DNA from: Macrostomum lignano
Taxonomy: Eukaryota
Direction: 5' to 3'
Length of the DNA: 43,672 nt
Assembly (NCBI GenBank): GCA_002269645.1
Contig: NIVC01004508.1
Location: forward strand, 1 to 43,672
Part shown: positions 3,061-42,524 of the stretch, one piece after another
How the letters are laid out: each line of letters begins with the position of its first letter
How positions within the stretch are numbered: the stretch's first letter is position 1
Translations under genes and position numbers: made by a program
Notes under the pieces: generated by a model
Seen by the model: the letters and a program-made list of their open reading frames with translations, nothing else
Told to the model about the DNA's origin: nothing
Database searches by the model: none

Positions 3061-3157
3061 TCTCATCCAGATTCCCAACAATCTCACCCAGATTCCCAAC
3101 AATCTCACCCAGATTCCCAACAATCTCACCCAGATTCTCAACAATCTCACCCAGATT
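3061..3157. repeat. 21-bp tandem repeat (CCAGATTCCCAACAATCTCAC), ~4.5 copies, abutting the Polinton left end
   Basis: Unit visible at 3067, 3088, 3109, 3130 and partially at 3151; interrupted exactly by AGTAGT at 3158. Confidence 0.9.
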
Positions 3158-3462
3158 AGTAGTATAGAAAAAGACGCTTCTAGACCCAGAGCACTTTTTT
3201 AATGACCGTTTTAAGGGTCTAGAGGGGGGACACGGGGGTAAATAAAAAAACACATCTAAACACCCTTAACACATCTAATCACCCATAATCACCCCTGACA
3301 ATAAAAATCATTCCCAACACTTCCAAACACTCCCCAACACCCCCTCGCGTCCCCCCTCTTAAGACCTTACAAACGGTCATTAAAATAAGGTCTGATCTAG
3401 AAGCGTCTTTTTCTATACTACTACTCTATAACCCCTTGCCCGCGCCGCAGGCGCGAAGGGTC
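3158..3462 (+). repeat. Left terminal inverted repeat (305 bp)
   Basis: Reverse complement of 20808-21114. By-eye alignment shows no substitutions and two 1-nt indels (G5 vs G6 near 3234; a T missing near 3340). Confidence 0.97.
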
Positions 3463-5317: not shown

Positions 5318-5509
5318 ATGGAAGCAATTTTAGCTCAAATCGACAACCCTGAACTTAGAGCACAATTAATAGCTCAAATCGATGCACAACGAATTGCCGA
5401 TAGGGCTGAAATAGAAGCAAGAATTAGGGCAGAAAATGAGATACGTTTAGAAAGACAATTAAATGATATTAATAACCCCAACCACAAGGACAAAATGGAG
5501 CTGAAGTAA
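5318..5509 (+). CDS. Small coiled-coil-like hypothetical protein (63 aa)
   Basis: Intact ORF with CTATAAAATG start; could be an N-terminal part of pPolB. Confidence 0.45.
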   Translation: MEAILAQIDNPELRAQLIAQIDAQRIADRAEIEARIRAENEIRLERQLNDINNPNHKDKMELK

Positions 5510-5559
5510 TATATATAGATATAGATATAAATACAAATTATAAAGAATATTTTAAACAA

Positions 5560-8500
5560 ATGAAAGATAAATTAAAGACTATATTAAACAATTATACTAT
5601 AAGGCCAAATAACAAACGACAGCCAATTAAGTATAAAATAGAAGTTGAAACAGAATTTAAAAAACCAAATATTCTTAATGCAAATTCAGAAATTGAAGTA
5701 ATAAATAACTTTTCACAAGAATCATATAAAACATTATTATCAATGGGAAATTACAACAATCAATTCGATCAAATAGAAGCTGAGTTTGATGAATGGATAG
5801 ATAAGATGACAGAAAACGGATCTGGGTTTATATTTGTATCTGTAATTCAGCAATAGTAAAGATTGCACCTATAGAAATTCTTAAAGGACGATCACATATG
5901 AAGCTCAAATTTAAATCACCTATGATTATAAATCCAGACAATAAAGATAATAAATGTTTATTATGGTGTTTATTAATTCATAAATATCACAATCAAGTAG
6001 AATCACACATTAATAAAATATATAATTATAGACAATATGAGGATGAAATAATAATGAAAAACATATCATACCCAGTAGCAATAGATGATATATATAAGAT
6101 TGAAAAAATGAATGGTTTAAATATTAATGTTTTACAATTGAAGAACCAAAAGATCTAGAAGAAATTCAGCAGGTCGATCCAGAATGGTATAAGAAAAGGT
6201 GTTATCTTGTTAAGCCAGCAACTGATATAACAGCACCAGATCAAATCGATCTTTTGTACATGCAGCGCGAAAATGAAACACATTATATATACATAAAAGA
6301 TATTAGTTCTTTTTTAAGAGAAAATAGAAATAGATATCCACTATGTAGAAATTGTTTTACATTTAAAAAGGATGAAACAGCTCTTAAAAACCACCAACGA
6401 TTTTGTTTAGATCACAAATTTACTAATGCTATAATGCCAGCATCTGAAGATGCAACCCTAAAGTTCCAACAACATTATATGGCAGTTAAAAAACCAATAG
6501 TAATATATGCTGATTTTGAAGCAACAAATGTTCCCTTAAAAGAATCACAGACGGTATCTGATGACGGTCATGCAAAGCATGCGACCCTACGGGACGGTGA
6601 ATGCACAAAAAAATTGGCACAACAGTTTCCGAATAGTTATTGTATATATGTACACTCCGTAGCTGATCATATATTTAAATCAAGGATGATTACTTACCAC
6701 GGTAATGATGCAGCTAAGCACATGGCAGAATCATTAGTAAATGTATTTGAATATATTCAAAATCAATATGATAAATTATCAAAAAATATTAATATGACAA
6801 ATAAGGATAGAGACAATTATAAAAATGCAACAAATTGTTTTATGTGCAAAAGATATTTAAGTAAGAAAATAAGATACGAGAACATTGTCATCTAACAGGA
6901 AATTATCGAGGGGCAGCATGTAGATCATGTAATGCAAAAGAAGGAAAAGGATGTAAGGAAATACCAGTATTTTTTCATAATGGTTCCGGATATGATTTTC
7001 ATTTCTTAGTTCGAGAATTGCTTCATTTAGGAAAGGATGAATATGAAATAAATATATTACCTAAAACATCAGAAAATTACATATCAATAACATATGGTAA
7101 GAAATACTCCCATCTAGTTTTTCTAGATTCCTTGAGATTCTTATCAACATCTTTAGCAAATGTTGTTTCATCATTAGTTCCAAAACCATGGGATTTAGAA
7201 ATAGTAAAGAAAAACTTTCCAATACTATTGAATCGTTTCAAAAAGGAAAAACTATCCGAGGAAGAACTAATGCTATTAACTCGTAAGGGCATCTACCATA
7301 TGAATATGTAACATCTGAAGACGTATTTTTTCATACCGAATTACCCCCAATTGAAAAGTTTTATTCAACATTATCACAAACAAACATAAGTGAATCGGAT
7401 TATGAACACGCTCAAAAAGTATGGAAATACTTTAATTGTAAAACATTTAAAGATTATCATAATCTATATCTTAAAGCAGATGTTCTCCTATTAGCTGATG
7501 CATTTGAAAACTTTAGGAATCATACATATGAGAATTTTAAAATTGATCCCGCATATTGTTTCAGTGCACCGGGATTAACATGGGCTTGTGGTTTGAAACA
7601 TACAGATGTTAAGATTGATTTACTAACTGATCATGATATGTTGTTAATGATTGAGAGAGGAATTCGCGGTGGATTCTCGGGTGTACTAGGAGATAGATAT
7701 ACTAAAGTAAATAATAAATATCTACCAAATTATAATAAAAAAGAAAAATCATCATATGTATTATATCTAGATGCAAACAATTTATACGGTGGTTGTATGA
7801 AACAAAAATTACCAATAGCTGATTTCCAATGGGAAGATGACCCCGATTATTACAAAAATATTCCCGAAGGAAGGGGCTGTATCGTAGAGTGGATTTGCAA
7901 TATACTCGGGAAGCAAAAGCAAAAACATATAAATATCCTTTAGCTCCAGAGCATTGTTCAGTTAATGAAGATGATTTATCACAAACACAAAAAGATTATC
8001 TTAAAGTAGATAATGCAAAACATCTAGCAACAAAAAAATTAATATTAAATTTACATGATAAGAAAAACTATGTAGTGCATTATAAGCTTCTACAATTTTA
8101 TGAAAAGCAGGGATTAAAAGTGTCTAAAGTACATCGAACAATATCGTTTATTGAGGAAGATTGGTTAGCTAAATATATTGACTTTAATTCAAATCAGAGA
8201 CAGATGTCAAAAACAAATTTTGAGAAAGATTATTGGAAATTAATGAATAATGCTTTTTATGGAAAAACGGTTGAAAATATTAGAGATAGAACCCAATTCC
8301 ATTTAGAAAAGGATATTGATAAAGCAAAGAAATATTTCTCAAAACCTAACTTTAAAGACTTTATAAAATTTGATGATAACTTTATGGGTATTCATATGAG
8401 AAATAAAACAACAAAATTTCTTAAACCAATATTTATTGGAATGGTTGTTTTAGATTATGCAAAGCTGGTAATGTATGAATATTATTATGATGTTATAAAT

Positions 8501-9293
8501 AAAACATGGCCAGATAACTATCCAATATATGCAGACACCGACAGTTTGGTATTTAAGGTTGAAACAGATGATCGGAGTCCGCGAACCAAAGGTTCGATGT
8601 CTATAAAGATATGGAAAAAATTAAGGATACATTGGACACTCCGACTATCCGGATAACCATCCTTTAAAATCAGATCAAAATAAAAAAGTTGTACTTAAAA
8701 TGAAAGATGAATTAAATAGCAAAATCATAACCGAGTTTATAGCAATAAGATCAAAATGCTATGCATTTAAGGTTTTAGGACAGGAGGGAGAGGTAAAAAA
8801 AATAAAAGGGGTATCAAGAGCAGCAGTAAAAAAGATAACATTTGATGATTATAAAAACGTACTTTTAGATTACCTTAATACAATTGAAAATTATCATGCT
8901 CCACAATATCGATTAAATTCAGATAAGCATCAGATGTTTGTCATCGAGACAGATAAAAAAACATTAAGTCCATTTGATGATAAAAGATATTTAGATGATA
9001 AAATTAAAACATATCCATATGGTTTAAAAGAAGAGATAAAAAATATGATAAAAGATAAAAAACAAAAAGAAGATATAATAAGTAAATATAATGAATACAA
9101 AGCGGCAATAAATAATTATTATTACGATTGTGATTGTGAATCCGAATGTGATTGTGAATATAATACATTTCTAGAATATGAAAAAGATATAGATAATTAT
9201 TATTCAACATTTCCAAAAGAACTTAAAAAATTAAATAAGGAAAAAGTCTTGAATAACTGGAAGAGATTAACAGAAAAATTACTTATCGGATAA
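5560..9293 (+). CDS. pPolB: Protein-primed family B DNA polymerase (about 7 frameshifts)
   Basis: ExoI IYADFE; ExoII FFHNGSGYDFH (6967-7000); ExoIII YLKADVLLLADAFENFR; PolA YLDANNLYG; PolB KLMNNAFYGK; PolC YADTDS; endonuclease-VII-like Zn insert CFMC...IREHCHLTGNYRGAACRSCN. Breaks near 5846, 6151, 6869, 7297, 7880, 8575-8595 and 8640. Confidence 0.97.
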
Positions 9294-13519: not shown

Positions 13520-13960
13520 CTATTTTATAGAGTCTAAAATCGCCCTAAAGTCTTCGGGGTTTACACGAGCTTCATTCGAAAGTCGATATAAAAAATACAA
13601 CGCCGCTTGCCCGCAATAACTTTTATCAAAGGTTTGAAATTGTTCGTGATGATCTCCACATAAACGATTTTTAGTATGATTAAATTTGTCTTTTATTTCC
13701 TGTAACGGAGGAAGCGCGTATGAATCAAAAAAATAAACAAGTTTAGGTTTGGAATAAACTGCCGACCAATGAACACCATTTTCTTTTGTTGTTTCAATAT
13801 TAACAATGAAAGATCCATATTGTGGTAAGTCTTTGATCTCATCTCGCATAACACATCTGAATGGTTTTATTTTTAACTGCCTCGCCCAATTTGTTAATTC
13901 GATATTGCTTGTTGTGTCCGTTCCATATCTTTGTTTAAAATCATCCCACGTCATGGTCAT
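13520..13960 (-). CDS. Adenain-like cysteine (maturation) protease
   Basis: Catalytic pattern GVHWSAV (H), YFFDSY (D), QFQ...SYCGQ (Q/C); intact 146 aa. Confidence 0.93.
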   Translation of the reverse strand: MTMTWDDFKQRYGTDTTSNIELTNWARQLKIKPFRCVMRDEIKDLPQYGSFIVNIETTKENGVHWSAVYSKPKLVYFFDSYALPPLQEIKDKFNHTKNRLCGDHHEQFQTFDKSYCGQAALYFLYRLSNEARVNPEDFRAILDSIK

Positions 13961-14940: not shown

Positions 14941-14991
14941 TTTTATAGTGGGGAAATCGAACCTTTGGTTCGCGGACTCCGTCCGATCGTG

Positions 14992-15786
14992 CTATGTCTC
15001 TTCTTCCTCATTATCTTCTTTTATCAAATTTGTTAAAATTCTATGTTTCCTTTCTAACCTCGGATTGATATAAATATGTTTGTATTGGCTATCATCCCAA
15101 ATTTTTTTACACATACTTTTAAATGGTTTTGCATCCAATCCGGGATTAAATCTAGCGTGAATATTTTGTAAATCATAATTATCTAAATCAAACATTACAC
15201 AACAGCTAGCATTCTTTTTTATAATCGATTCTAATTCTCTAAAGGATTGAGTAAGATAAAAAGCTCCAATTCCATCTCCTCTACCACTAACAAAAATTTC
15301 CTTTTGCAATTCTTGATCACCGTCATTAATACAATCATCAAAAATAATTAGTGTTTTATCATGTTTTGGAATTTGATCATAGGCTAATCGGGTTGATACT
15401 CTAACAGTTGGGGCGCGATCGGACGAAGTCCGCGACCCTTCGGGGCGATCGGTGATGTTTTCTGGCTGTTGTGCCATTGTTTTACATAAATCCTCAATGT
15501 CTGCTAGATTAAATCGCGGTTCGTCATCATCCTCATATTGCTCATATGCTCTTAACATTCTAAACAAGACATCTTTTTTTAATTTGTTTTTTAATCCATG
15601 TTTAAGAAATTCATAATATTTTATTCTAGGTTTATTAGTATAAATTATTAAATTATTATAGTCTAACATTCCATCTGTTGTTAATAAATCGTAAACAAAG
15701 TGTGTTTTTCCTTTACCTGATCCTCCGATTACTAAACAAAGAAAAGGATCATTTGGAAATATTTTATTGTGTTTTGCCTTTACCAT
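14992..15786 (-). CDS. A32/FtsK-like DNA packaging ATPase
   Basis: Walker A GGSGKGKT, Walker B LIIFDD, motif YLTQSF; intact 264 aa. Confidence 0.95.
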   Translation of the reverse strand: MVKAKHNKIFPNDPFLCLVIGGSGKGKTHFVYDLLTTDGMLDYNNLIIYTNKPRIKYYEFLKHGLKNKLKKDVLFRMLRAYEQYEDDDEPRFNLADIEDLCKTMAQQPENITDRPEGSRTSSDRAPTVRVSTRLAYDQIPKHDKTLIIFDDCINDGDQELQKEIFVSGRGDGIGAFYLTQSFRELESIIKKNASCCVMFDLDNYDLQNIHARFNPGLDAKPFKSMCKKIWDDSQYKHIYINPRLERKHRILTNLIKEDNEEEET

Positions 15787-15896: not shown

Positions 15897-17310
15897 CTAG
15901 AAACAATACGTGGCGTCAAGTGCCTGATTACCGGTTTTATTAATCTCTAACATATAATTAAGTCCAATATTGGCTACGTTTTCTTTCTGTGCCGTTAGAT
16001 CATAAACAACCACTGGATGAATGTTTAGAAACTCTGTGGGTGTGTACTGAGGGACGGCATACGCTTCATTTTTAGCATAATCTTGATAATATTTTATAAA
16101 ATCATTAACATTATTATTTGCTATATTTAAATTTAGGGGGTCTTTAACCGGATAATATTGATCATCAACCTGCAGGCGGATATTCTGAACATTAAACTCG
16201 TTAATAGCTGCAGCCGCATTGTCTGTTGCGGTGGCTGCTTGTTCTGCTATGGCACCGGATTGAAGCCAATATAAATCCCCATTTGCTCTTTTACTCCTTC
16301 TATTTGTTATCTTAAACCAAACAAAAATATATCTCACCCGACGTTTTGATGTCAGTATTTGCCACTGGAATGAATCCTGGTTATTATTAATGGTTCGCAT
16401 AAAATGTCGACGATTCAAATAAAATATTTCCTGATCATGCGTTAACTGATTATCGATGTGTTTTAAAAGTGGGGCTGTTACCTCAATAGTTGGTACGACT
16501 AATTGAATTGAATCTATACGAACTGCTATATCGGTTGAAATTGAGGTTCCATAAAGTATCCTAGGCTGATATCCACCAGATATTTGCAACTGTATCCCAA
16601 ATTTTAATCCTTTCCATACCCGATTTGGTGAAAAGAACCCAAATAGTGGAAAGATTGAAAAGTCTTTGCTCATATGCTGTTGCTGTGGTTAAAACCGCTA
16701 CTGGGAATTTATTCTGACGAGCTATAAAACCTGTATTAATATCTTTTGTATTAGTCATGGTGGTTACAACTGGAACTATGTTTGTATTAAGGTAAACAAT
16801 TAGCGCTGCAGTATCTGCACCGGCTGCGTTTTGTACATTAGGGAAAACTACTGCTTGTCCATTACCCCTTATCAGGCATCCACCCAACATTATCACCAAC
16901 TTGTTTTGATAAATAAGTATAATTTAAATGTTTCAAAACTCCATTAATCTCTGCGGGGTTTGATGATGTCTCAACCTCAGCACCATTAACAGTTAGTTGA
17001 GCTTGGGAAAAACATTTATAAAACCAATCATTTTCTATTATTATTCCGGATCGATCTGCGATATCTCCGGCTGCAAGAGCAGTTCCATCATTTCTAGTAT
17101 ACAACCATCTAACGCGGAAAAACGCATTTTTCATATCCAATATAGTGTTGGTTGCGCCGATGTCAAAAGTTACCGTTCCAGTAGTAAAGTTATTTGAATT
17201 ATCACTTGTTGGTAGGGTATAATTTAAATCTTTGCTCTGACCTCATTAATATACTGTCGGTGCTTTTTGAAATGAAATTTATCACTCCACATAGTTTTTG
17301 TTTCAGCCAT
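15897..17310 (-). CDS. Major capsid protein (double jelly roll), ~470 aa, 3 frameshifts
   Basis: ATG 17310 (TTAAAAAAATG). Fragments LDMKNAFFRV...CFSQAQLTVNGAEVE, IDSIQLVVPTI, RVRYIFVWFK, VQNIRLQVDDQYYP and VVVYDLTAQ follow the Polinton MCP pattern. ORFs 16862-17140, 16561-16899 and 15897-16673 overlap in series. Confidence 0.9.
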
Positions 17311-18037: not shown

Positions 18038-18640
18038 ATGGAAACTAATAAGATTTGTACTAAGTGTAAACAAGAAAAACCGATGACAAAAGAATTTTAT
18101 TTTTGGAGAAATGATTCAAAAAAATTTAGAAATGATTGTCGATCTTGTCATAATACCTCATCTGCTATTTGGATAAAAAACAATAAAGATAAATGGAATG
18201 AATATAGAAAAAATAAGTATCACACTGATGATAATTACAAACATATTGTTTTAATTAGAAATAGAATAAATTGGGCGTTGAAAAATTTTAATGACAAGGA
18301 CTATATCTCATATCTTGGTTGCACAAAAGAATTCTTTTTTGATTGGTTAAATTTCACAAGAAATTATTATGTATCAAAAGATTATACTGGAAAGTTAGAT
18401 ATTGATCATTTCATTCCCGCTTCTTCGTTTAGTTACAAAGATGAAGATCAGATGAAAAAGTCTGAAAATTGGAGAAATAAAAGATACTTAACTAGCGTAG
18501 ATAATAACTATAAAAAAGTTAAACAACCAACCATTGAAGAGTTTGCAAAACAATTGGTGCTATCATGTATTTTTAAGGCTATTAAAAATGAGCAACCGAA
18601 CGAAGTTCGCGTTCCTTCGGAACGATCAAATAGTGTTTGA
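18038..18640 (+). CDS. Free-standing HNH/endonuclease VII-like (beta-beta-alpha-Me) endonuclease (200 aa)
   Basis: N-terminal CTKC...CRSC Zn finger; YLGC...FFDWL; DIDHFIP...NWRN...DNNYKK, resembling HNH-type endonucleases of large DNA viruses and phages. Confidence 0.8.
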   Translation: METNKICTKCKQEKPMTKEFYFWRNDSKKFRNDCRSCHNTSSAIWIKNNKDKWNEYRKNKYHTDDNYKHIVLIRNRINWALKNFNDKDYISYLGCTKEFFFDWLNFTRNYYVSKDYTGKLDIDHFIPASSFSYKDEDQMKKSENWRNKRYLTSVDNNYKKVKQPTIEEFAKQLVLSCIFKAIKNEQPNEVRVPSERSNSV

Positions 18641-20224
18641 AGGAGGATTGTTAGATGTTCAAAAAGGATTAACAAGCTTACCACCAATCTTTACTACTGG
18701 AAGGTATACAAATGAATTACACATCCCATCTTACAACTTCGCGGGTGGAGCTCGAGCTGTGCCCGAGTGGTAGATGCAAAGCTACTGCTAGTCACTATTA
18801 GTGGCAACACCAGCCGCTCACTCAATCCCCTAAAGCTTCAAGTACCACTTTGTTTTCGAAAGATTACAAAGGAACAGAGGTAACTCCTCTTCCCAACGGT
18901 AACAAGCTTGAAGATAAATATATGGGCAAGAGTGAATCGAAAACCTAACCTCATATGACTTGAGTATGGTTGAGATGCAACGACTGTACGCTGGTGGGCT
19001 TGAAGGACTTAGTCAATCCTTATGATAGCTTAAGACACAGTCTACTCCTTTGTGAAAGCAAAGGTATAAAGGCCGGGTTGACTCGACTCGATCTCCGATT
19101 AAATCCTGATAATACTCCAAAAGCCGATTCAATTCCCATTAACGGTATTGATTGGTTAGCATACTATCATGACTTAGCATACAGAGATGCTGATAAGAAC
19201 TCACCCGAGGAAGCATTAAGATTAAAACATGAAGCCGATCAAAAAATGATTCAAGGATTAGATAACTTGCAGGGATTATCAGTAGGTCAGAGATTAACTA
19301 GGTGGATGGTTAAAAAGATTTTGCAGTCTAAAGTTAAATTTGGTTTGGGAATTAATTATAATCAACATGGAAATAATTGTGTTGAGTGTTTGTTGTTAAG
19401 TGGCGGTGGGTTAAGTTCTGATGAGGCAAAGATTCTTCATAAAGAATATCGAAAACCTAAATTTTATAGAAAAATCATGAACTTCAAAAAGAACGAAATT
19501 TGGTATGCTGATTTAATGTCTATGCCGATCGATAAAGGATATAAATATATTTTAACCATATTAGATGGTTTTACTCGATACGCGTGGGCTGTTCCTTTGA
19601 AATCCAAAAAAGGAGAGGATGTTGCTGCTGCTTTTAGAAGTCTTGGAGAAAAAAGCGAAAGATTGTGTGTTGACGAAGGAAAAGAATTTTACAATCCTCA
19701 TATGTATAAATTATATCATTTTGAAAAAGGACAAGAAAGGAAAAAGGACGCGAATGGGGAGTATATTAATAAAATTTATTCTATTTATGGAGAGAGTAAA
19801 AACGCATTAATAGAAAGATTTAATCGAACTTTAGGTAAGAAATTGTGGTTTCAGTTTAGTCTTAATGGAAACCAAAAATGGGTAAAAATATTACCAGACG
19901 TTGTAAAAGATTATAACAATTCATATCATTCGGCCATAAAGATGGCTCCTCAACAAGCTTATAACAATCCTGAAAACGTTAGGGTTACTTTTGGAGATTT
20001 TGAAAAAAAAGAAAACTAAAGGTTTTAAGGTTGGTGATTCTGTTTATATCTATAAATGGAAAGATAAGTTTGAAAAGGGAAGAAAAGGATATTGGAAAAT
20101 AAGTGAGAAATTTACCATCAGTAAAGTTTTAAATACAAACCCTACAACCTATATAATTGCTGATAAGGATGGTGAAGAAATATTGGGTTCTTTTTATGAG
20201 AACCAGATAATGTCTGCGAACTAA
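18588..20224 (+). CDS. PLA2-integrase fusion (exon 1 18588-18746, exon 2 19081-20224; one indel in the A-run near 20005); ~430 aa after splicing
   Basis: TAAAAATG start. LHIPSYNFAG|TRLDLRL...INGIDWLAYYHDLAY...EADQKM is a parvovirus VP1u-type PLA2. IWYADL...ILDGFTRYAWAVPLK...VDEGKEF...IERFNRTL is an rve DDE core. C-terminal FKVGDSV...GSFYENQI. Confidence 0.93.
18747..19080 (+). ncRNA. Group I self-splicing intron (IC-type with P5abc), 334 nt, no internal ORF
   Basis: P1 exon CGGGU/IGS GCCCG with U.G; perfect 7-bp P3; 6-bp P4; P5abc with A-rich bulge and GAAA L5b; P6 with 11-nt receptor-like motif; P7 GACUG/CAGUC with bulged C; J8/7 UAAGACA; P9 GAAA hairpin; terminal G. Removal restores the PLA2-integrase frame. 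Confidence 0.93.
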
Positions 20225-20807: not shown

Positions 20808-21114
20808 GACCCTTCGCGCCTGCGGCGCGGGCAAGGGGTTATAGAGTAGTAGTATAGAAAAAGACGCTTCTAGATCAGACCTTATTTTAATGACCGTTTG
20901 TAAGGTCTTAAGAGGGGGGACGCGAGGGGAGTGTTGGGGAGTGTTTGGAAGTGTTGGGAATGATTTTTATTGTCAGGGGTGATTATGGGTGATTAGATGT
21001 GTTAAGGGTGTTTAGATGTGTTTTTTTATTTACCCCCCGTGTCCCCCCTCTAGACCCTTAAAACGGTCATTAAAAAAGTGCTCTGGGTCTAGAAGCGTCT
21101 TTTTCTATACTACT
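20808..21114 (-). repeat. Right terminal inverted repeat (307 bp)
   Basis: Ends ...GAAGCGTCTTTTTCTATACTACT at 21114; matches the left TIR. Confidence 0.97.
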
Positions 21115-21502: not shown

Positions 21503-22000
21503 CAGTGGCAAAACGGAATGGTAGCAGATGGAGTGAGTAAAGATGCTGACTGATTGTTAGCTTGTTTGGTTGTTTGTTTGTTGCTTCTGTATTGTTAGTA
21601 TTAGCTATTGTCATTATTGTTATTAAAATGAGCTACTGAGTCGGAAAGAAGAAGCTATAAGCCGTTTTTTACCTACATGCTGCTGTCTACCGAGCATTCT
21701 GCTGTTATTGGCGTCGACATGGCCTTGCCTTTGGACAGTTCATTTTCTTCGTTTCCAATTCAAAAGTAAAAGAGCAAGTAACAGCTGGCTGGCTGGCTTG
21801 ATATTGAAGGGGGTGGGGACTGAAGTACACCTAATAAATAAGAATAAAAGCCTTGACTGGAATGCACTGTGTTTATTGTCTATGGCACGCACTCTACGAA
21901 GATTTTAAATGCTATTTAAGAAAGTTTTCTTTTTATCCTCTCTCTAAAACGAATGCGGAAGACGCGAATTGACTATTTATAGATTTCTAACTACTATATA

Positions 22001-22707
22001 TACCTTTTTACGTTCTATTTGATAAAAACTGCAACCAATTTGGCCACGGCTCAGCCTGACGCAGCCGCAGCAATTTTCCATAGACAGCCACCGCTAGCGG
22101 CAACCAATTTGTTAAAAACTGCGAGCTATTTTGCCAGCTTGAAGATAGCAGCTCAATAGCATAACAATAACGATAAAGAATGTTAACAATACATGCACGA
22201 AGTCAGAACATTATGTCCTCAGCATTCAAGCACCGATTGAAGTACGTCTGGGAATGGTTGATCCAGCGCAGGCACTTGAGAGGCGTGATGCAGTTCAGTG
22301 CTTGCTGCACTTCTCTCTTCAGAATGCGCATTCTGTGCTGATGCAGTGTCGCACCTGCTGCAGCAGCCAGTCCAGTATCTGCCAACTCTACCAGTTCGTT
22401 CATACGTGGTCACGATGTTCCTCACTGTCGGTTTCTTCATCCCCATCATTCTGCCAAGCTCTCTCCAGTCGTCGCCACTCCTGTACGCTCTCACGATTCG
22501 CTCTCGATCCAGCTGACTTATCTTTTGGTACGGCCCACGATTCGCCATCAGAGCAGCTGCTATCTTCAAGCTGGCAAAATAGCTCGCAGTTTTTACCAAA
22601 TTGGTTGCCGCTAGCGGTGGCTGTCTATGGAAAATTCTATGTCTATGGTCAGGCTGAGCCGTGGCCAAATTGGTTGCAGTTTTTATCAAATAGAACGTAA
22701 AAAGGTA
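22001..22707 (-). mobile_element. Internally deleted (non-autonomous) Tc1/mariner-superfamily DNA transposon
   Basis: TA duplications at 21999-22000 and 22708-22709; ~153-bp TIRs (TACCTTTTTACGTTCTATTTG...). N-terminal HTH MANRGPYQKISQLDRERIVRAY...KPTVRNIV is joined out of frame to a transposase-like C-terminal helix (ITPLKCLRWINHSQTYFNRCLNAEDI); DDE core absent. Confidence 0.9.
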
Positions 22708-22880
22708 TACTAGCATGCATATAAAAATGGATACATATATATGTTATTAATTGTGCATTAATCAACAGCAGCAGAAATAGAAGGATAAATCATTAGATCC
22801 ATCAACTGTATAATAACTAGCGAATAACAGATAATTATTATATATGAACTTTTACAACTGTTAATTAAACGTGCTCATTA

Positions 22881-27800: not shown

Positions 27801-30080
27801 CTGAAAATCCCGCGTGCTACCGACTGTGCACGGTGAGATCCGAGCAGGGCGCTTCGGGCAAAGAAATTGGCGTGCCTGTTACTGAGCAGGAGGACGGCTT
27901 GAGTCGGATTGTGCTCAACAACCCCGGTCGCTGGCTGCCTGGACAGCAGGTAATAATGTGGGCTTTGTTGAAAGTGTAATTCTTTATGAACTCAAAACTG
28001 CGCAGTTTATTGCAGTCATTGTAGTAGTATGGTTGGGGTCCCAACTCCCACCCTGCATTTCCACCGCAGTTCAGAGCTTAATTTATGAAATAACCTTTTT
28101 TTCCAAACCATATATTTTAGCTTTAAGTAAAACCCTTCACAAATTAGCCTAATTAAGTTTTCTACATCTCTAAATTACCTGTCTTGGCGTACATTTAACT
28201 ACAGCGTTTAATCACAGTACATTCGAAGTATAAACGGACTTCTGCCTTGACTACTCACCACCAGGTGGTTGTGGAGCTCCTGGACGAGGTGCAGCCCAAC
28301 GGTGCATCCAAGGGCCGCGTCCTCGGCTACTACAAGCGCCAGTTGCGCTACAGCTTCCTCGGCCACCAGCAGCTGCAGAAACTCCTGGCTGAGCAGCCGG
28401 ACCGCTTCAAGATTTGCACCCTCGAGCTGAACGGCGTCCAAGGGGGCTCGGCGGTTCCGGTCGACCCCAGCGACCCGATCGCCCGCATCGAGATCAACGG
28501 GCGCGAGAACTGCGGCAGGGCCTGCGCCAACGACCAGGTGGTGGTGGAGATCATGGAGATCAAAGGCGCTGACCCGGCTAATAAAGAGGTCAAAGGACGC
28601 GTTGTTGGCATGCATCAGCAGGTGCGAATTTGTTAAGCTCTTTGTCGACTTATTTCTAAACTCTTAGGGCATCGATTGGTTACAGAAAATGGGTTTGGGT
28701 CGGGCATGCGGTCCTGAAAGTCAGTACTGTGAGAACTGTGACTGTACTGTCACAGCATAACATGCGCAACCTTGGGAATCACTCGGCCAACACACACATG
28801 TAAGTCGCTATGGGCTGAGAGCAGTCACGTGACTACTATTCCGTCCAATAGCGACTTGAATCGGGTGAATCCCTAGGTTGATGATAGGCCGGGTGAATCC
28901 CTAGGTTGCGCCCAAGCATGTGTCACAGTACTGTCAGAACTGTGACTTGAGTCTAAACAACTATCATTTAAAAAATTTCCAACGTAAAAATGAATCACAA
29001 AATGCTCAGTGCTTTATGAAAAGACAACTAATTTACAGTATTACAGAGCCTTCTCAATCACTTCTAACAGGCGGAGAAGCTGCGCTACCAGCTGTTTCTC
29101 TGCGAAGTGCTCAGCAGCGTTGGCGCACTGATGCGACCGTTGTGCGGCACCTTCCCGAAGATTAACTACGACAATTCGATTGCTCAGCATGCTTTGAAGA
29201 ATGAACCAAACGATTTGCTCGATGGACACCAAGAGCGCAGCAGCACAGGGCAGCAACAGGTGACTCAGAAACAAAATCATGCGCGAAACATTGACCGCGA
29301 CTTTGTGTCGGTCTTCTTACCGAAAAGGTGTGAGCTAATTTTTAATTACATTATATTGCTACTTTTGTTTAATAATTTCAGCAACGACGTTGAATGCATT
29401 TAAACAATTTTCAAATCTTACTAGGGATTCGACTGGTAAAATCTACTTTGAGCACGATCGCTATCAGCGAGTAAACAAAGAATTCTGCGAGCAGACTTTT
29501 CTGGTGTGCTTCGAGTATTGGCGTCTGGACAAGAACTACCCCATGGGAAAGGTGGTCTACGTGCTCGAAAGCACCGACGGCTCGCTGGCAGAGGCGTTCG
29601 GTCTCATCCAAATGCGACACCGGCTGCCTCGTCCGCTGCGAGATTCAAAGAAGCTGCGCAATCAGGTGGCTAACGTGCAGCAAAAGGACAACAGCATGGG
29701 TCTAAGGGACCGGCTCGACATGCGTAAGGTGCTCACCGTTACCATTGACAACCCGGACACGCGGGACATGGACGACGCAATCAGCTACGAGCGTTGCTAC
29801 TCAACAGGCGTAGAAACCGTCGGTGTTCACATCACCGACATCTGCGAGTTCATCGGCATCAAAGGCTCCCCGCTGGACCGTGTGGCTCGGGGTCGCCTCC
29901 GAACCATCTACCCGCCTAAGGTGGGCAAGTCGCAGCAGCAGGTGACACCCAACCACATGCTGCCGAAAACTCTGGCTGAAGACGTGCTCAGCCTCTGCGA
30001 AGGATCCGACAGGTTCTGTCTGAGTGTGCTCTTTAAGTTCAAGCGTGACGGAAAACACGTAAAAGTAAGATATCGCGCGC

Positions 30081-30117
<37 letters not shown>

Positions 30118-33100
30118 GGGTGTTTTTTGGTTGAGTGAGCACGTGCTATACTCAGCAACGATTGAAAAGTCGTCAGTGATGAATTTCTCTTGGACGATTC
30201 TGAAATAAAAGATACGAGAAAACTGATCGGAGTAGCTTTAATCCGTCCAACCCTCGCACACCGCTCCCCCCACTTTATTGCTCAACTCAAGTCGGCCGCG
30301 GCGTAGCTGAGTTGAGTCAATCGCAAAGAGGCGCAGAGGCGCAGAGATTGCAGAGATTTTTAGGCGTTGTGAAATTCAGGCGTTATAAAATTTAGGCGAT
30401 GTGAAGGAGGCTCTATCTTCAGTTTTAGGCGTTGTGAAATTTAGGTCTTATGAAAGCGTCTTGTGATTCGTATAGAGACAATTTTAGATTGCAGCGTTAA
30501 AGTCTGACTATCTAAAAATTCGCCTGTCTGTCTCGCAGAACGCCTGCGTAAGGAGAAGTATTAAGTACAACGTATAATCAGCAACAGTCAAAAGTTCCAC
30601 CTGTACAAATCACGCGTAGTTAGAGAGAAAACTTTCTTTTAAAACTCACAGTGAAAGGTGAGTAAAAATATTTTTGCTTGGTGAGGTGGAACTTATGACT
30701 GTTGTTGGGTTATATATTACCTCACACTCACAGACAGTAACCGTTGAAATGTCTGCAATGTAAATAACGCCACTCTATGTAGTTCTCTCGACTATCGAAA
30801 ACAACATAGGGCGTAGGCAGACGCTCTATTTGTAGTGGTGAAATTATCGATCGAGTAACGCCCAAATCCAATGCGTGCAGGGAATAGGGGGTTAGGTCCC
30901 CAGCCCCCAGCCAGGCCGATACAGTTTGCCTTTCCTCTCATATTTGACTTTAACTCTCTCCTTACGTCGTATTGCTCTGATATTGGCTGAGTTGGATTGA
31001 GCCTGCCCCCTAGGCACACGGTCTTTCGTCTTTCGTCCGTCTTGCGTTCACGTGTGTACGAGCTACGAGATAAATGCTTGCAGGCTGCAAACCTTAAGAA
31101 AGAGGAGTAATTTTTCCCTTGAAATATATTTGCTACATTAAATTTCAGTTATGCAACGCACAAAAACTAATATTTCTTACAAATTTATTTGCCAATGACG
31201 AATCGAATTATTATAGATATTTAGATATTCATGCAGTTAGTTATTTAAATAAATATAAAATTAATGCCTAGCTCTAGCTAAACCAGCCGACACGCCGACT
31301 TCAAATTCATTAACTAAGATTGTGTATGACATCTCAGATTCTATGCGGACCTGATGTAATCGAATTAGCTTGCAATTTTACCTACATTACCAACTTTTAG
31401 AGCCCTGCAAACCTCCTCTGGGAAAAGCCCGAGTTCCACCAGACCGTCATTCGCAGCGACCTCCGGCTCAACAAGATCGACGTGCAGCCGGTGCTGCTGG
31501 AGACCGAGCGCAGCGCCGACAGCTTCGGAGACCGCCTGACTCCCGACTTCGTGTCGATGCTGCGCTCTCTGTGGGACATCGCTCGACGCCTGCGGCTGAA
31601 GCGGCTTGGTGAGGCCGGCTTCCAGCTGCAGGATGACGACTTCTGCGACGACGACGACGAGCAGGGATCCATCGGGCGGACCTTCGAGACCAGCTGCCTC
31701 ATCGAGGAACTCATGGTGCTGGCCAACCTGTCGGTAGGTCAGTGGTTGGCAGAGCAGCAGCGGCCGGTTGTGGCTCGAGTCCAGGACGAGCCCCGACCTG
31801 TCGAGGTCCAGAATTGGCTCGGTAAATTCGGTCAGACGCTGGTGCACATGCCGCGACTGCAGCGCGATCTTCGAGGCCTCAATGTCTCGTTTAGTCTGTG
31901 CAACTTTCCGCTGTCTCTGTCTCGAGCTGACTATGACTTCATCATGAAGTACCAAATCGGTAGGCCTCGCGATTGCGTTCTACGGCTCATGCACGACAGT
32001 CGCCATCCGCACATGATGCTGGCCCTCAGTGAATGGTTCTCCGTCACACAGCCCGCGCACTACGCACCAACGGCGGACGAGACGTCAGCCAAAGAAGCTC
32101 GGCGAAAGGTGTACCACTTCAGCCTGCAGCAGGCGAACTATTTGCACTTTACAAGCCCCATGCGTCGCTATCCGGATATTGTTGTCCACAGGGCGTTCCG
32201 AGCGGCGATTAACAATCAGCAGCAAGGCCCGGCGACAGGAGAGACGTCCGAGAGTCTTAGCGATCTGTGCGACTCGCTTCGAAACCTGGAGCGTAGAGTC
32301 AAGATGTTCGAGAAGGACTCCATGAGCTACGCCTACGCCAGCCGTCTGAAGCGACGCCCACAGCAAGAGCTCGTGGTGTTGCGCTCCATCGATGATGGCG
32401 AGATGTCTTTCACGAGTAGCCGTCTTCGCCGCATGCCCAAGACACTCGGAGTCGTGAAGATGTCCAGCTTCGGACTGGATGCTCGACCTGAGCCTCGAGG
32501 ACTTGAAAAGTTTCGCTGCAAATGGAGCCGACGCATTTTCGTGCATTCTTCATGCGAAGACTCATCAAGCTACAACACTCCAGTACTTCATTACATTGGC
32601 AGTGAGGTTCGTGTTAAGCGAGACGTTTACGTCCAGCGCGTCAACTGCGATCCTGTAGTGAAGCTGCGCAAGGACTTCATAAGTTCCGGCGCCAATTACG
32701 AGTCAGTTCGGGGCCAGTTTCGCCAGCTGCAAGACGTTGTGCTTGAAGATCAAGGTGCGTGGATGATCACCTGTGAGAATGACCAGCTCGCTGTCGGAGC
32801 GAATGAACAGCTTCTGGTGTCGGGCAAGCCAGTCCAGTTCTACCGCGAGTTCGCGGTCGGCGATATCATGCGGCTGCAGTTCCGAGCACAGTTGCGTCAG
32901 GGCCTGCTAACGCCCAGCGTTGCGCTGATCGAAGTGTGCGGCAGCCACACGGTGTGCGTAACGCACAAGGACGATCCCGTGCGCTGCTTCGCGGAGGTGA
33001 CGGATGTCAAGTCCAAGCCCTCGTACCGCGACATCGACGAGTACGCGACCATCTGGCAGCGCATCGTGGCCATCGAGTCTGCCACCATCGCAGCATCGAC

Positions 33101-36100
33101 TGATGACAGCGTCATCCTGCATGAGGTGGCGCTCGACTGGAGCTACCACCAGCCCACTGACCGGTGGCTAGCCGCCTTTCATCTGCCTTCAGATTACTGC
33201 GTCCAACGCCAGATCAAGGTTGGAGCTGACGCCACAGTGCTGGACCCGTGTTCCGAAGACAAAATTAAAGAACTCGTTGAGCACAGTGGACGCGGTGGTG
33301 GCGCCAACCTCAGCGAAGAGGCGCTCAACGAATCTTTTCAGCTGGCTGGCGAGAGAGCAAGGTGGGCAAGTTCTGGTAACTGTAGAAGTCTATGAACAGT
33401 TTGTTAGTTTTTAGTATTAATCCTGTTCACCAAGGGGGTTGATCCTAATAGTCAGGTTGGCGCTCCCATGTGCCAGCGGCCCAGGCTCGATTCTAAGGGC
33501 AGTCGCATTAATTTGGGGCTAAAATGCAATCTCAGCTTGGCTCTGCTTGTGTGCAATTAACGCTTTTGAAGGCCAACCCCCAAGGCACAGTGAAGAGTGA
33601 AGTGTACATGCCTAACGATAAATAATAAAGTTAGGGCCGCTGTACACTCTTGTGTGAGTGTGTGCCTGTGCGTATGACTGCGTCCATATCCTTGCGCTTG
33701 TGTACCTGCTCAGGGGAGTCGACAGAATGTGCAGCCATGCATCTCGCCGGTTGTTTGACAATGTCGCTTAAAGTGCGCGAGTAGCGAGCACCCTGCCCTG
33801 ACCTGAATTGAGTTACAAGTCCACCAAGCGCAATTAAAAACAACCTGCCATTGCAGAGCATATAATCCAAAAATTAGTCAAGGTTGTCAATCAGGTGCAT
33901 CTTTTCCCAAAAGCGTTGACGCTGGCAAGCGGCATCACAATATTCTTATCAGCTTTGCCCATTGACAAACCGCGGTAGAGTTCTGATTTAATCTCAATTG
34001 TCTCGTGTACTTGTTTTCTTTTCTAGATACAGCGACTTTGTCTGCTTGCGCTTTTCGGGTGGCAGCTCCAATGTCCCAGGCTCTGAAGGTTTCACCACTG
34101 TTGCTCACGGCGGTATCTTGCTAGTTTACCAGACTGTACACGGCCGCAATGTCAAGTGCAACTGCCGCAGAAGCGACGGCCCAACTGGCTATTTTTGCCA
34201 GATTGTCGTGTTTTCACTGCAGCAGCACGACTTGAGCCCGCGATTCGATTGGTCCAGCGTGTCCACAGCCACCGTGGAGGTGATGCAGAAGTTTCTGCCA
34301 ATCCGACGCCAGGAGTTGGCGCTGTGGCGCCTTCCGGCTATGCCCAGCACATCGTTGGCGCACAAGATCGCTCTGTTGGGCTCGAGAGAAGCTCGAATCT
34401 CGGGTGCGTTTAAATCTTCGTCATTTCAGTAGATCCTAAAATGTATTCGCATTGCAATGAGCGTCATCTACTGAGGATATTATCCCATCTGTCAACCTAT
34501 TGTGTTGTTAAATGTTTCAATTCCGAAGTGCGATTTAGAAGAGCTAAATAGTTTTTACATGCGTCCAAACACAATAGAAATTTCTTTACTCTAACACCAA
34601 AAACGTTCCACAGCTCGTTTTGTGGCCTAAGTCTCTGACCACTCACTCCAAGTCAATCGATCAAATTTTCTCTAGACTATACTTACAGATGTTCTCTAGA
34701 CCATTAAGTCAGCTATTTTCTAGACTACTGGCCTTTTGTTTTTAGGCGATTTTGTCAGATGTTCTCTACAATATTAAATCAGAGCTTACGTTGTCCTAAT
34801 AAGCCAGTTTTATTAAGTGCAAGCTACTACTTAAAGAATTGGTTAAAAAAAGCTTTTAACAAAATAGTTTTTTGTATTTTCTGCGCATTAAATATTCGGA
34901 TTGGATGCAAAACATTTTTAAATTTCATCTTTTTAGACGCAAGCTACGGTGAGAAGCTGCACCAGAAAGGTGTCGTGAGCTACTCGATTGAGACTGGCGC
35001 TGAGGAGCGGTTTAACGAGCACACTGGTCGCACTTACATTATGCGAAAGAGAATTCCGTGCAATGTGGCGCAAAATGATGCCATCACGGAGGCGATGAAG
35101 TACGACTTGACGCTCATCTGGGGCCCGCCAGGTGGGATTCTCATCACGCATTAATTCTATTTATTTGCAATGCTAAGTGCTATTATTCAGAACGAGAAAG
35201 CGCTTATTTGTTTTTTCACTTGCTGTATTTTAACAAGCTGGGTTTTATTTTTCTTTGTTTTTTTCATACTTTAATGCATGCTTGCCTACATACATGTACA
35301 ATATTGTCAGTATTACGTAATAATCGCTATATCAGCATGGAATCGACCTCAATTTTGCTATAGGGAAAAGAAGCTGTCTGCGCTTCAGAACTAATTGGGT
35401 AAGACAACAAAGAGATGCGACAGAATGTTTGCACTGTCAAAGATTTGCACTTCCTGATGGAAAGCTACATGTTCTATGTAATGCCAGATAATGACTCCAT
35501 GTGTTCGTTGGGGTAGAATACTGTCCATGTCTACCAACTCTTTGCACCGAAAATAACGTTTGTAAATGATTAGTGTCTACTTTTACGTTCACTCTAAGTA
35601 CGAGGATTAACTAACCTTTTCTTATGATATCCTTGATGTCTCTATAGGATGTCTCTTCAAGCTAAGAAAGCGGTCTTGTTTATTGTATCCACTGTTTTAA
35701 TCATTGGTGACGGTAGAAAATTTTTATTCAATATTAACTGTTTTTGAAAAGGAACAAAGCTGTTTTACTTAACAACCATTATATAATCTAGACGATTCAC
35801 GCGACATTTCAGGCACTGGCAAGACATCAACAGGCGTCATGCTCACTTACTGGTACGTTTTTGTAAATCGCTGCTTCGACGAAGACCAGTCAGATGTGGG
35901 ATCATCTGACGATTCTGGTGAAGACGACAACGATGACGATGACAACGGCAGCAACCCAAGTGAGAGCCAAATAGCAGTCGATGATGATAGCGAAGAAGCT
36001 GCGGCCATAGACTATTCGGCTTTCAGCAAAGGCAACGACAGTGGTCAAGATCAAACTGGAGAGCTTCGAGAGGCCTTGTCTAGAAGTTTAGCGGAACCTG

Positions 36101-39100
36101 GCGCAACTGACGGAGGCTGGAATATCGTGAGCTCAAAACGCCGCGCTGCTAGGCGGTCGACTCAAAGCCAAAGCTCTTTCGAACCGACAGCTGGGCCGAC
36201 TGAAACGACTCCAGTAGCACCGATGCGGTCGAAGCGCTTCGACAAACAGTTGACGGTTCGCGATGAAGAACTGCAGACACGTCGCCAGGTGCTGTACTGC
36301 GGCCCATCAAACCGATCCGTGGACGTCGTGGCCGAATATTTGAAGGCAAAGTTAGACAAAAAGTGTCCAACAATCGTTCGCGTCTTTAGCGAGCAACTGG
36401 AGCAGAAAAAGTACCCTGTGCCAGGCGAAGGTGTCAGCAATAACAGTGGCGATGTAGATTCTGGCGGCTACATAACTCCATTATTGCAGGTAGGGCTGAA
36501 TTGTATCCTATGTACAATTATATGTATCCTATGTATGTGTACAATGTATCCTATGCATAAGGTCCTATATATTGATGCATTTTATTGACTTTACAAAAGC
36601 ATACTGACTTACAAGCCTGGGGTCCGGTTCAGAGAAAGCATTCTTGCACCATTTTTTGTTGCGTGCTGCATGCAATTCATCAGCCAACAACATCCTTTTG
36701 ACTGAAATTAATGAACTATGCGATATGTTTCCAATGAATTTCAGGAAATGGCCCTGCACGAGCTGATTCGCAACCCGGATCGCAATCCGATTTCGGCAGA
36801 AACTCTGCTCGCATTCGACGATTTGTTTCGTCGGTTCTTGGACGCTGAAAGGCACACTACCGCTGCCTGGACGAGGGCCTTGACCCAGACTGCTGAGTCA
36901 AACTCCAAGTTTCAGTCCTATCTTAACCGCCTGGCACAGGAAATGGTCACTTCTGACCGAGGTAAATTGGATTTCAGAAGCTTTAGCTATCGAGACTTGT
37001 CGCTGCTTCAGTTAATAACAGTGTACAGAAAGGTTGTGACCGCGGCTAAGAAGCGCGTGCTGCAGCAGTTCGAAGTGATCCTGTGCACGACGTCAGTGAG
37101 CTGCAGCTCAGTACTGCAGACGGCCTGCAAGTTCAGCCAAATCATCATTGATGAGGCGGGCATGTGCACCGAGCCGGAGACCCTCGTGCCTCTGGTAGAC
37201 TGCTCACCAGCCAACCAGTCAACGATCAATGCGCAGGGGAAGAAGAAGGCATCGCACTTCACCGAGCGCCTGGTGCTCATCGGAGATCACAAGCAGCTTC
37301 GACCAATTATCCAGAATAGAACTGCTGAACAGCTCGGCTTGGGCGTGTCGCTTTTCGAGCGGCACAGCCATCGGGCGATTATGTTGAGCTATCAGTACCG
37401 AATGGTAAGCCTGATTTGATGCGCAAAAATAGTCGCTTTAGACAGAATCATGAGAAGCGCTTCGTTTAATAGCGACTTACATGCGTTTGTATTGCCAGTT
37501 CGTATAGAAAACGGCCTAAAAAGTGTAACATTTGTGCATGTATGCCGCTATCTTGAATTCCGACATAAAGCACTGATAAATTTAAATGCACAGTCTTTTG
37601 GGTCTACAGCTTGGGGCCGATGTGCACACAAACCTTTGTGACTGCCTAAGCAACCACGATCGTATTTCTGTCAAAATTCAGGGTTCAGGTCAAGTGGACA
37701 AACGTTCCATTTCTAACTCCTTGAGCCCCTTGAAAATTAAATACCCAGCTAATTGCATCACCCGCAGCACCCGAGCCTGTGCGAGTTCTCTGCCGACTAC
37801 TTCTACCGCACTAGTAGCGCTCATCTGCAAACGCGACAGTCGCCATCTTGGACTGGACTTCAAAGTGATGATGTTTGGGACCCCGACCGCGAATGGAACG
37901 GCATTAACACTCATCGCTTAGCAAAGCACTACGTGTTCGATTCCTACAACTTTCGCACTGAAGGTCGCGTTAGCGGTAAGCTGCGACTAGAGAACGCCAA
38001 TGTGCTCATTGGCTGCTGGCCCGGAGTGCGCAGGCCGGATGACTACCCAGTTGACTCCTATAGCAGCTCCTATAGCAGCTCCGTCTACTCTTCGCACCGA
38101 GTTGTACAGCCGACAGACCTGCACGTGAAAGGCGAAGAGGATCGCATTGTGTTCCTTCACGTTGAGGGAGTCGAAGAGAAGACCACCGTGTCCACGGAAG
38201 AGGGCTCCGAGGACTCGCGTCGGAACTTGGCGGAAGTTGAAGAAGTGGTAATGCTCGTTGCTTGTGATCCTAAAGAAGGTCCGATTGTTGCAAAACCAGA
38301 TATCGCGCGAAAACCCTTACTATTCTTTTACTATTCGTTTTACTATTCTTCTTCACTGATTTGCTATTTCACCCACCGCTAACAACTTGAATTTTTCACG
38401 TGAAAATCCAATTAAAACCGTCTGGTGGACATTGTGACCTTTCAGATTCGCGTCTATGAGGCAATCCGCAAACGAGCCGAGCGTCCTCGGCTTTTCAACG
38501 AATCTCTGGCAGTTCTGTCTCAGTACCGTTACCAGGTGAGCAGCATCGCCAAGAAGATACGCAGCTGCGGTGTCAAGTCGCCCATCGTCAAGACAGTCAT
38601 CGAAAGCCAAGGTAAGATTTGATTGCGTCGTGCTGATCATAACTGAGATTTGCTTCTGTAAGCTCGTAAAAGCTGCTAAGTAGTTCAAATTGCGTATTTT
38701 TTATAGAAGTGGCCTTTCTATCTTTAATAAGGTGCTCTGATATCTTTATATAAGAAGCCTCATAATTTTATCTCATTTGATTGATATCCCAGGTAGCGAA
38801 TTCGACTACGTCATTCTCTCCCTCGTGCGCTCGCTGCCCAACTACGAAATTCCGAAGTCCCCGATTCCAAGTTGGGAGCACAAGTATCTGGGATTTATTA
38901 CCGATGCCAACCAGATTAATGTGGCGCTCACTCGAGCTCGCAGAGGCCTCATTATTATCGGTATGTGCAACAACACTATTAAAGATCTTCCTAATTTGTA
39001 CGGACACAGAATCAATTGAAAGTCACTCATGGGAAACGCCTACCAAATCTTCTGTACTATTTAGGCAATCGGTTCCTGCTGCAAGCAAATCCGATGTGGA

Positions 39101-42105: not shown

Positions 42106-42446
42106 TGAGTGCTTGCGGCGCTAAAATGAGTGCCTGCGGCGCTAAAATGAGTGGCTGCGGCGCTAAAATGAGTGGCTGCGGCGCTAAAATGAGTGCCTGC
42201 GGCGCTAAAATGAGTGCCTGCGGCGCTAAAATGAGTGCCTGCGGCGCTAAAGTGAGTGCCTGCGGCGCTAAAATGAGTGCCTGCGGCGCTAAAGTGAGTG
42301 GCTGCGGCGCTAAAATGAGTGCCTGCGACGCTAAAATGAGTGCCTGCGGCGCTAAAGTGAGTGCCTGCGGCGCTAAAATGAGTGCCTGCGACGCTAAAAT
42401 GAGTGCCTGCGGCGCTAAAGTGAGTGCCTGCGGCGCTAAAATGAGT
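42106..42446. repeat. 21-bp minisatellite (TGAGTGCCTGCGGCGCTAAAA), ~16 copies
   Basis: Directly visible; variants GGCTGC, GACGCT and AAAGTG. Confidence 0.95.
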
Positions 42447-42524
42447 AGGGGTCGATGCGGCGGAGTATATGTATGCGAGAGGGATCTTCCACGAGTCTTT
42501 AAGGCCGCATGCCATTACAACTAG

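Follow-up and report, generated by a model that had tools for sequence, protein, structure and literature searches.

IC1-type group I introns at one codon boundary of the PLA2-integrase gene of Polintons in the chromosomes of a bilaterian animal

A 43,672-nt stretch of Macrostomum lignano DNA (GenBank assembly GCA_002269645.1, contig NIVC01004508.1, positions 1 to 43,672; the window) contains a Polinton whose gene for a phospholipase A2 (PLA2) fused to an integrase is split by an insert that, judged by sequence and predicted structure, is a full-length group I intron of the IC1 type. Introns of three types lie at the same codon of this gene at no fewer than 87 places in the genome. We consider it probable, at roughly 0.8, that IC1 introns with kin in giant-virus contigs colonised this one codon boundary in the PLA2-integrase genes of Polintons and were carried by them into the nuclear chromosomes of a bilaterian. 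The original prediction, made from the letters of the window, had proposed a Tetrahymena-like intron within a protein-coding Polinton gene in animal chromosomal DNA, and this core claim was borne out, as was the IC architecture on which it relied.

The Rfam model RF00028 matched window positions 18763-19064 over its whole length (model positions 1-253 of 253) with 42.8 bits and an E-value of 1.3e-9. A pairing check verified the predicted coordinates of all helices, namely P1, P2, P2.1, P3, P4, P5a, P5b, P5c, P6, P7, P8 and P9. P1 (18742-46/18761-65) puts its U.G on the 5' splice site, P3 (18808-14/18990-96) and P4 (18818-23/18930-35) lie as predicted, and P7 contains the guanosine-site pair G18982-C19042 together with a bulge and forms the P3-P7 pseudoknot; the P5a extension is short, with its partner strand at 18898-901. 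The window intron has P2 and P2.1, a P5abc domain with an A-rich bulge, a GAAA sequence in L5b and a motif resembling the 11-nt receptor in P6. P2/P2.1, the A-rich bulge of P5abc, the L5b GAAA and the P6 receptor are the features that define IC1. Some of them are also described in PMC8395846. The intron region folded better than 100 of 100 shuffled sequences (z -3.8). Chance folding was rejected, and so was a spliceosomal intron, since the ends of the insert are not GT-AG. The ribozyme is putatively self-splicing.

The distribution of the insert was surveyed in the 764-Mb assembly (5269 contigs). A search with exon 2 gave 488 candidates, 150 of which were scored, and junctions were read at 70 places and parsed at 69, with L089 yielding its 3' end only; 80 further close-family places and the other type C copies were left out of the junction reading. 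At least 87 introns were counted at the one codon, 24 of type A (resembling that of the window), 35 of type B and 28 of type C, numbers inflated by redundant contigs, as seen from Wnt and troponin matches that recur in identical sets of two to four. The parsed junctions comprised 24 type A, 35 type B and one type C intron and nine intron-less alleles, one in the close family and eight in a family about 63% identical. All nine read through as G-P-G-T, with the intron precisely absent, and compared with them the window carries 326 nt plus two surplus bases. Every intron starts directly behind the first Gly of this PLA2 loop (G-P-x-T), the loop in which the original prediction had placed the insert. 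The base preceding the insertion point was U in 60/60 intron-bearing loci, which is what the U.G pair of P1 requires, and C in 9/9 intron-less loci (two rows printed one base off register).

Type B introns are about 300 nt long and type C introns 880 nt, the latter holding an open reading frame (ORF) for a PD-(D/E)XK nuclease. A DNA search with type C returned 28 full-length matches at 80-100% identity among 41 matches, and the 28 scored genome hits of RF00028, all at 73-91 bits, fell largely at the same places. Types B and C exceeded the cut-off of the model, with 61-64 bits (3/3 tested) and 85 bits, respectively. Type C introns and three introns from outside the genome (L094, L133 and L121) end in G. 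Insert and flanks were identical at 12 loci. One type A copy (L024; G000:C249) bears an 835-nt insertion in P8 that, by eye, has TG...CA ends and an apparent 4-bp duplication and resembles a solo long terminal repeat. Palindromic insertions of about 30 nt belonging to one family were found in Polinton ORFs (window 8573-8601, 14953-14981 and ~18592-18626) and in the loop after P5c of introns L032, L033 and L087. Some copies have them and others lack them, and in appearance they are minute mobile hairpins.

Covariation was assessed in an unfitted MAFFT alignment of 20 introns, in which 42 pairs of P5a, P5b, P5c, P6a, P7, P8 and P9 were counted. Pairing was kept in 96.4% of the 840 cells (20 introns x 42 pairs), which represent related sequences and not independent events, all the more as the types from this genome share peripheral domains, and this limits the evidence. 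Changes on both sides of the helix were seen in 27/42 pairs; none of 500 shuffles reached any of the covariation measures, and slid partners paired in only 34-49%. The guanosine-site G-C pair was invariant (20/20 introns) and four of the six P7 pairs had changed on both sides. P3 and P4 were misregistered by MAFFT and stood outside the formal count, judged from a hand table only, which is a further weakness of this evidence; by hand, P4 of type A differs from that of types B and C at 5/6 pairs with pairing retained. The compensatory changes that had been foreseen in P4 and P7, and that an alignment of intron-plus and intron-minus Polinton copies was expected to reveal, are thus present, for P4 by hand check. 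Variants of P5b and P5c were shared by types A, B and C in spite of their different cores (L017, L018, L020, L023 and L063 compared with L087), a distribution that points to recombination between introns of different types.

The 3' boundary originally proposed for the window intron, G19080, was not confirmed, although G19080 may still be in use. The intron-less alleles and the sister introns have the exon resume at Pro-Gly codons, and in the alignment G19072 corresponds to the last base of the sisters; G19080 was rejected as the ancestral boundary. G19072 lies 29 nt from P7, compared with 30 nt in 8/9 sisters examined and 37 nt for G19080; in the remaining sister, L081, a 1-nt loss shifts the count to 29. 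The hexamer 19073-19078 followed by two extra bases was found at 24/24 type A loci. Pro-x codons open the resumed exon in types B and C as well as in the outside introns, and those of type B, Pro-Gly, vary at third positions only in the 32/35 loci with an intact hexamer. Two residues separate Gly and Thr in 49/49 parsed homologue loops (12/61 unparsed), 39 of which read G-P-G-T. Ligation at G19072 would place a stop straight after the hexamer, ligation at G19071 would leave the frame open with a loop one residue longer, and ligation at G19080 would leave the frame open with a loop two residues short.

The most likely single reading of these data, tentatively, is that the type A 3' splice site has moved from G19072 to G19080, a shift that sacrifices two loop residues and leaves the integrase in frame. 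The guide base 5' of the G of the internal guide sequence (IGS) is U in the window and pairs with A19081, while in all sisters it is G and pairs with the first C of the exon; an 8-pair P10 is possible in the G19080 register, in which alone the type A-specific synonymous bases 19086, 19087 and 19089 are paired. Against the shift stand the shortened loop, found in 0/49 parsed homologues, the calculated P10 energies (-10.8 kcal/mol for the G19080 register, -11.4 for an exon starting at 19073 and -11.4 for one starting at 19072) and the 30/288 synonymous versions of the four codons that equal the pairing strength of that register.

Rather unlikely, in our estimation, is a two-step course in which splicing at G19072 is combined with another round of cleavage and ligation, directed by the guide and joining 19078 to 19081, either in cis ahead of splicing or in trans through the excised intron. 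It would account for several properties of the type A 3' end: the final five bases of exon 1 recur as 19074-19078, where pairing with the IGS would again finish in U.G, G is the last base of the surplus piece, G19072 retains the sister spacing and the hexamer is invariant in 24/24 loci. With 19073-19092 the guide can form a P1-like helix that runs on unbroken into P10, at -19.9 kcal/mol as opposed to -8.4 for exon 1, and it is with this downstream copy that the IGS pairs in the minimum-free-energy fold. An offset P9.0 (C-G, U-A; in L094 and L133 U-A, U-A or U.G) is also possible as read by eye. The chemistry has been demonstrated in vitro for three group I ribozymes as trans excision-splicing (PMC2532722), which needs a P1 U.G, a short piece ending in G and a P10, all present at the type A 3' end; that reaction was engineered and is termed non-native in the same source, we found no natural case, and a natural role is only hypothesised here. 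Moreover, the type A 3' ends are too alike for invariance to signal selection, and a simple shift to G19080 would equally need a strong P10. It is likewise unlikely that type A introns splice at G19072 or G19071 only, in which case those using G19072 would be defective passengers, spread by homing and moved in trans by the integrase of other copies. G19072 is the homologous site, P10 is equally stable from 19073 or 19072, homing is independent of a working host gene, and recombination between copies is free, with P5b and upstream nucleases swapping between types. Such a course leaves unexplained the three bases that pair in the G19080 register alone; in addition, the differences of type A exon 2 are mostly synonymous (57 vs 24 codons in 12 distinct variants, a hand sum, shared with type B), and a gapped pattern search found no intron-less allele with type A exon 2 codons. 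More doubtful still is the full proposition that active homing group I ribozymes splice RNA polymerase II transcripts in a bilaterian nucleus and that type A also excises a two-base exon segment in a second reaction.

Mobility of the introns is suggested by the nucleases that accompany them. In the window a free-standing HNH/endonuclease VII-like ORF occupies a slot just upstream of the intron site (Table 1), and this slot held a nuclease in 59/59 type A and B loci, HNH in 47 and PD-(D/E)XK in 12. The free-standing PD-(D/E)XK proteins are 61-67% identical to the ORF of the type C intron, which is Eco47II-like (PF09553, E 3.7e-6) and resides in an intron with 28 full-length copies. Outside contig L094 has a GIY-YIG nuclease in the upstream slot. 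HNH alleles were 50-100% identical and the neighbouring gene about 70-100%, which suggests fast turnover of the nuclease slot. The type C ORF (L087:693-1190) has 13 metagenomic homologues at 46-62% identity, and eukaryotic DNA viruses may thus possess a PD-(D/E)XK homing endonuclease family to which these belong; its neighbours in the ESM Atlas are unnamed phage proteins, for some of which 11-22% of members carry restriction-nuclease families, a lead only. The pattern is analogous to collaborative homing and composite-intron formation, with target cleavage presumed. An ORF-less intron with an adjacent nuclease, and a composite intron, are found both in the systems described for phages (PMC3984707, PMC11296320) and in the present one.

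Relatives were sought outside the genome at 84 loci, of which 4 were viral and 80 the best among 432 from metagenomes. The PLA2 motif was present in 65/84 and an intron at the same codon in three (L094, L133 and L121), which a profile built from the introns of this genome alone recovered at E-values of 6e-18 to 1e-12 and which an Rfam E-value scan of 14 outside loci did not detect. Patterns of the 5' junction were met at 42 and 82 loci of viral contigs, with a match to the intron profile in the L094 contig only. The P4-P6 motif of types B and C, in turn, occurred in at least 122 IMG/VR viral stretches (L221-L342), many in giant-virus bins, and 122/122 matched the intron profile. No PLA2-integrase was present near these motifs in the DNA examined, the flanks being complete for only 80. 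Group I introns are known in chlorovirus genes, and the giant-virus matches suggest a donor pool.

The element that carries the window intron is 18 kb long and is bounded by terminal inverted repeats (TIRs); it encodes a protein-primed family B DNA polymerase (pPolB), an rve integrase and a packaging ATPase (Table 1), the genes and long TIRs expected of a Polinton, whose presence here had been predicted. By sequence it is a PLA2-bearing Polinton and is adintovirus-like: pPolB, integrase, packaging ATPase, a parvovirus-like PLA2, TIRs and an animal host are shared with adintoviruses (PMC8502044), in which PLA2 has a pX-like tail instead of being fused to the integrase. ORFs 15897-17242 and 13520-13960, candidates for the double jelly-roll capsid and the maturation protease, had no informative Pfam or PHROG match, a PDB search returned integrases only, and no RNA polymerase was seen in the element. 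Exon 2 undergoes a frame change near position 20000, its tail lying in 19940-20224, and its open frame spans 351 aa compared with about 400-419 in most copies. A 6-bp target-site duplication was absent at the ends of the window element; the empty-site spacing of 115 vs 109 nt, derived from coordinates only and from two other contigs with the same left flank, fits a 6-bp duplication. Inverted segments occur inside each TIR (window 3153-3427 and 20843-21114), as in hairpin or flip-flop termini. Beyond the element, window 21999-22709 holds a short element with long inverted repeats and a remnant of a Tc1/mariner-type helix-turn-helix, the helicase region of a host gene that we take to be HELZ2-like has a Gln-rich coding repeat at its end, and there is also a 21-nt tandem array (window 39238-39770 and 42040-42522).

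Table 1 Features of the window around the Polinton and its intron.
Feature	Position	Strand	Basis or remark
Left TIR, internal palindromic segments	3158..3462	.	96-100% complementary to 20808-21114
Protein-primed family B DNA polymerase, several overlapping frames	5476..9293	+	PF03175 E 3.7e-6 on 7287-7940
A32-type packaging ATPase	14992..15786	-	PF04665 E 9.8e-7
Free-standing HNH/endonuclease VII-like ORF, slot just upstream of intron site	18038..18640	+	PHROG endonuclease VII E 2.2e-7, HNH E 4.8e-5
PLA2-integrase exon 1	18588..18746	+	Ends at first Gly of PLA2 loop, last base U; start inferred from ORF/homologues
Intron 5' end	18747..18765	+	Extended guide (P10 side) 18747-18760, IGS 18761-18765
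Group I intron, type A, IC1 architecture	18747..19072	+	To terminal G homologous to 3' splice site of sister introns
Homologue of exon Pro-Gly codons	19073..19078	+	Last five bases repeat last five of exon 1, can pair with IGS
Two surplus bases ending in G, 3' splice site of the original prediction	19079..19080	+	Junction comparison
PLA2-integrase exon 2	19081..20019	+	PLA2 remainder (HD..Y) fused to rve integrase; PF00665 E 8.2e-8, PF08398 E 0.008
Right TIR	20808..21114	.	About 40 further TIR ends in genome at 98-100% identity
Host gene, several exons, RNB and AAA_11 helicase domains	29339..37419	+	Domain matches

An animal host and chromosomal integration, both anticipated from the window, were supported independently. 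The assembly gave 86 Wnt and 18 troponin matches and, troponin being restricted to Bilateria to our knowledge, these genes and their distribution place the host among bilaterian animals. Searches of other kinds contributed little: homologues of the flanking gene were limited to bacterial RNase R, COX1 gave one weak match in the assembly and no mitochondrial contig, and mir-2 was not found among the 60 candidates scored out of 109,891. Contig C1881 carries both flanks of the window element without the element, and this empty allele of the insertion site places the element in a chromosome; on two further contigs the same left flank adjoins a TIR. That the elements belong to a contaminating or symbiotic alga, fungus or protist and not to the animal nucleus is highly improbable. 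Such an origin would suit the fact that it is microbial eukaryotes and giant viruses that typically have IC1 introns, as illustrated by the 122 viral loci above. The empty allele, however, has both flanks on another contig, contig C67 combines a Wnt exon with a type C intron, intron-bearing Polinton copies sit on contigs of 0.4-2.4 Mb, and all 24 listed sequencing runs share one organism code, with holders of the element in seven studies; contamination as the source was rejected.

In the mechanism that we favour, an IC1 intron lineage would have colonised the codon boundary that follows the G-P-x-T loop's first Gly in PLA2-bearing Polintons, whose integration would have carried the introns into bilaterian nuclear chromosomes. 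The element transcript would probably be made by host RNA polymerase II, given that the element has no visible RNA polymerase of its own. Splicing would be needed because exon 1 meets a stop inside the intron, and would proceed by attack of an exogenous G at the U.G site and subsequent ligation at the terminal G. Endonuclease-driven homing would spread the introns between Polinton copies, by means of the free-standing HNH or PD-(D/E)XK nuclease adjacent to the site for types A and B and of the PD-(D/E)XK nuclease inside the intron for type C.

Several observations weigh against this scheme. Neither splicing nor endonuclease activity was observed, and the contigs of 4/24 runs (three guessed to be RNA, one of uncertain type) showed no intron-spanning joint on 18450-19500, an uninformative outcome as such contigs drop rare forms and may be DNA. 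The window copy lies below the gathering score of RF00028 (50), for which reason an Rfam scan of the window at the gathering threshold did not detect the intron, just as the original prediction had warned for sequence searches. Several genes of the window element are fragmented, and the intron-less allele L031 also has an upstream HNH ORF, so that HNH is not strictly coupled to the intron. The terminal base of type B is A in 27/35 introns (for example L030, L032 and L036-L040), which may mean slow or failed ligation; in these introns the G-C guanosine site is intact, as is the pairing that immediately precedes their end. A Coxiella intron that ends in A is one bacterial precedent, which our literature search did not retrieve. 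Some of these points would also suit introns that are silent fossils, active in splicing at an earlier time in a virus or protist and residing now in silenced or decaying proviral copies, as would the frameshifts in many copies and the 835-nt insertion in P8. We regard this as quite unlikely, since identical inserts and flanks, TIRs at 98-100% identity and the empty allele make the insertion recent, type B exons and Pro-Gly codons have undergone mostly synonymous change, and compensatory variants segregate within the genome.

According to PMC8395846 and PMC3679873, group I introns of the nucleus occur in eukaryotic microorganisms alone, within rRNA genes, and nuclear homing endonucleases are of the His-Cys box type. 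The introns described here have in common with the nuclear IC1 introns of ribosomal DNA (Tetrahymena type; fungi, algae, myxomycetes and ciliates) the P1-P10 core, the U.G and P7 G-C pairs, the A-rich bulge of P5abc, the L5b GAAA and the P6 motif resembling the 11-nt receptor, and differ from them in lying in a protein-coding gene of an animal and in their PD-(D/E)XK and HNH nucleases in place of the His-Cys box. Closer in vehicle are the RF00028 introns of 309-376 bp in integrated polinton-like viruses (PLVs) of a rhizarian, a chlorophyte and a cryptophyte (PMC12220804), which a mid-sized DNA virus likewise brought into a nucleus; those interrupt a short gene upstream of the capsid gene and have no endonuclease assigned, whereas here the host is bilaterian, the site is the PLA2 loop and nucleases are both intronic and free-standing. 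A 2025 database (PMC11835236) lists animal group I introns in placozoans, corals and sponges only, most of them mitochondrial IB4 introns; they share with the present ones an animal host and protein-coding genes, and are organellar, mostly IB4 and non-bilaterian as opposed to nuclear, IC1-like, proviral and bilaterian. The one mention of introns in the accessible part of PMC8502044 concerns group II maturases in another virus group, a nematode Polinton preprint (10.1101/2023.08.22.554363) brings up group I introns, in the part available, solely to say that an HNH domain may have come from them, and the accessible part of 10.1101/2024.03.25.586562 held no relevant passage. A literature search on group I introns in Polintons/Mavericks, adintoviruses and bilaterian endogenous viral elements, with most subscription journals uncovered, found no animal nuclear case. 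The earlier statement that no such report was known thus stands for animal nuclei, and fails for the pairing of intron and integrated PLV, already reported in protists; what is new is that the host is an animal, together with the picture of mobility.

This genome breaks, dozens of times, the rule that the group I introns of nuclei occur only in rRNA genes and in microbes. If the second reaction at the type A 3' end is real, it would be a natural case of ribozyme-catalysed RNA editing, hitherto an engineered reaction only, and animal-adapted ribozymes and a new family of PD-(D/E)XK homing nucleases may be of use for circularising RNA and for trans-splicing. Since Rfam at its cut-off missed the window copy, and missed the three outside introns as well, animal Polintons probably conceal further cases. 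Because alleles that are empty, ORF-less or endonuclease-bearing coexist in it, this genome makes it possible to study in an animal how introns home and how composite mobile introns arise. It is also a natural system for finding out if self-splicing introns are barred by animal nuclei and by capped mRNA pathways, or if all that had been lacking was a vector.

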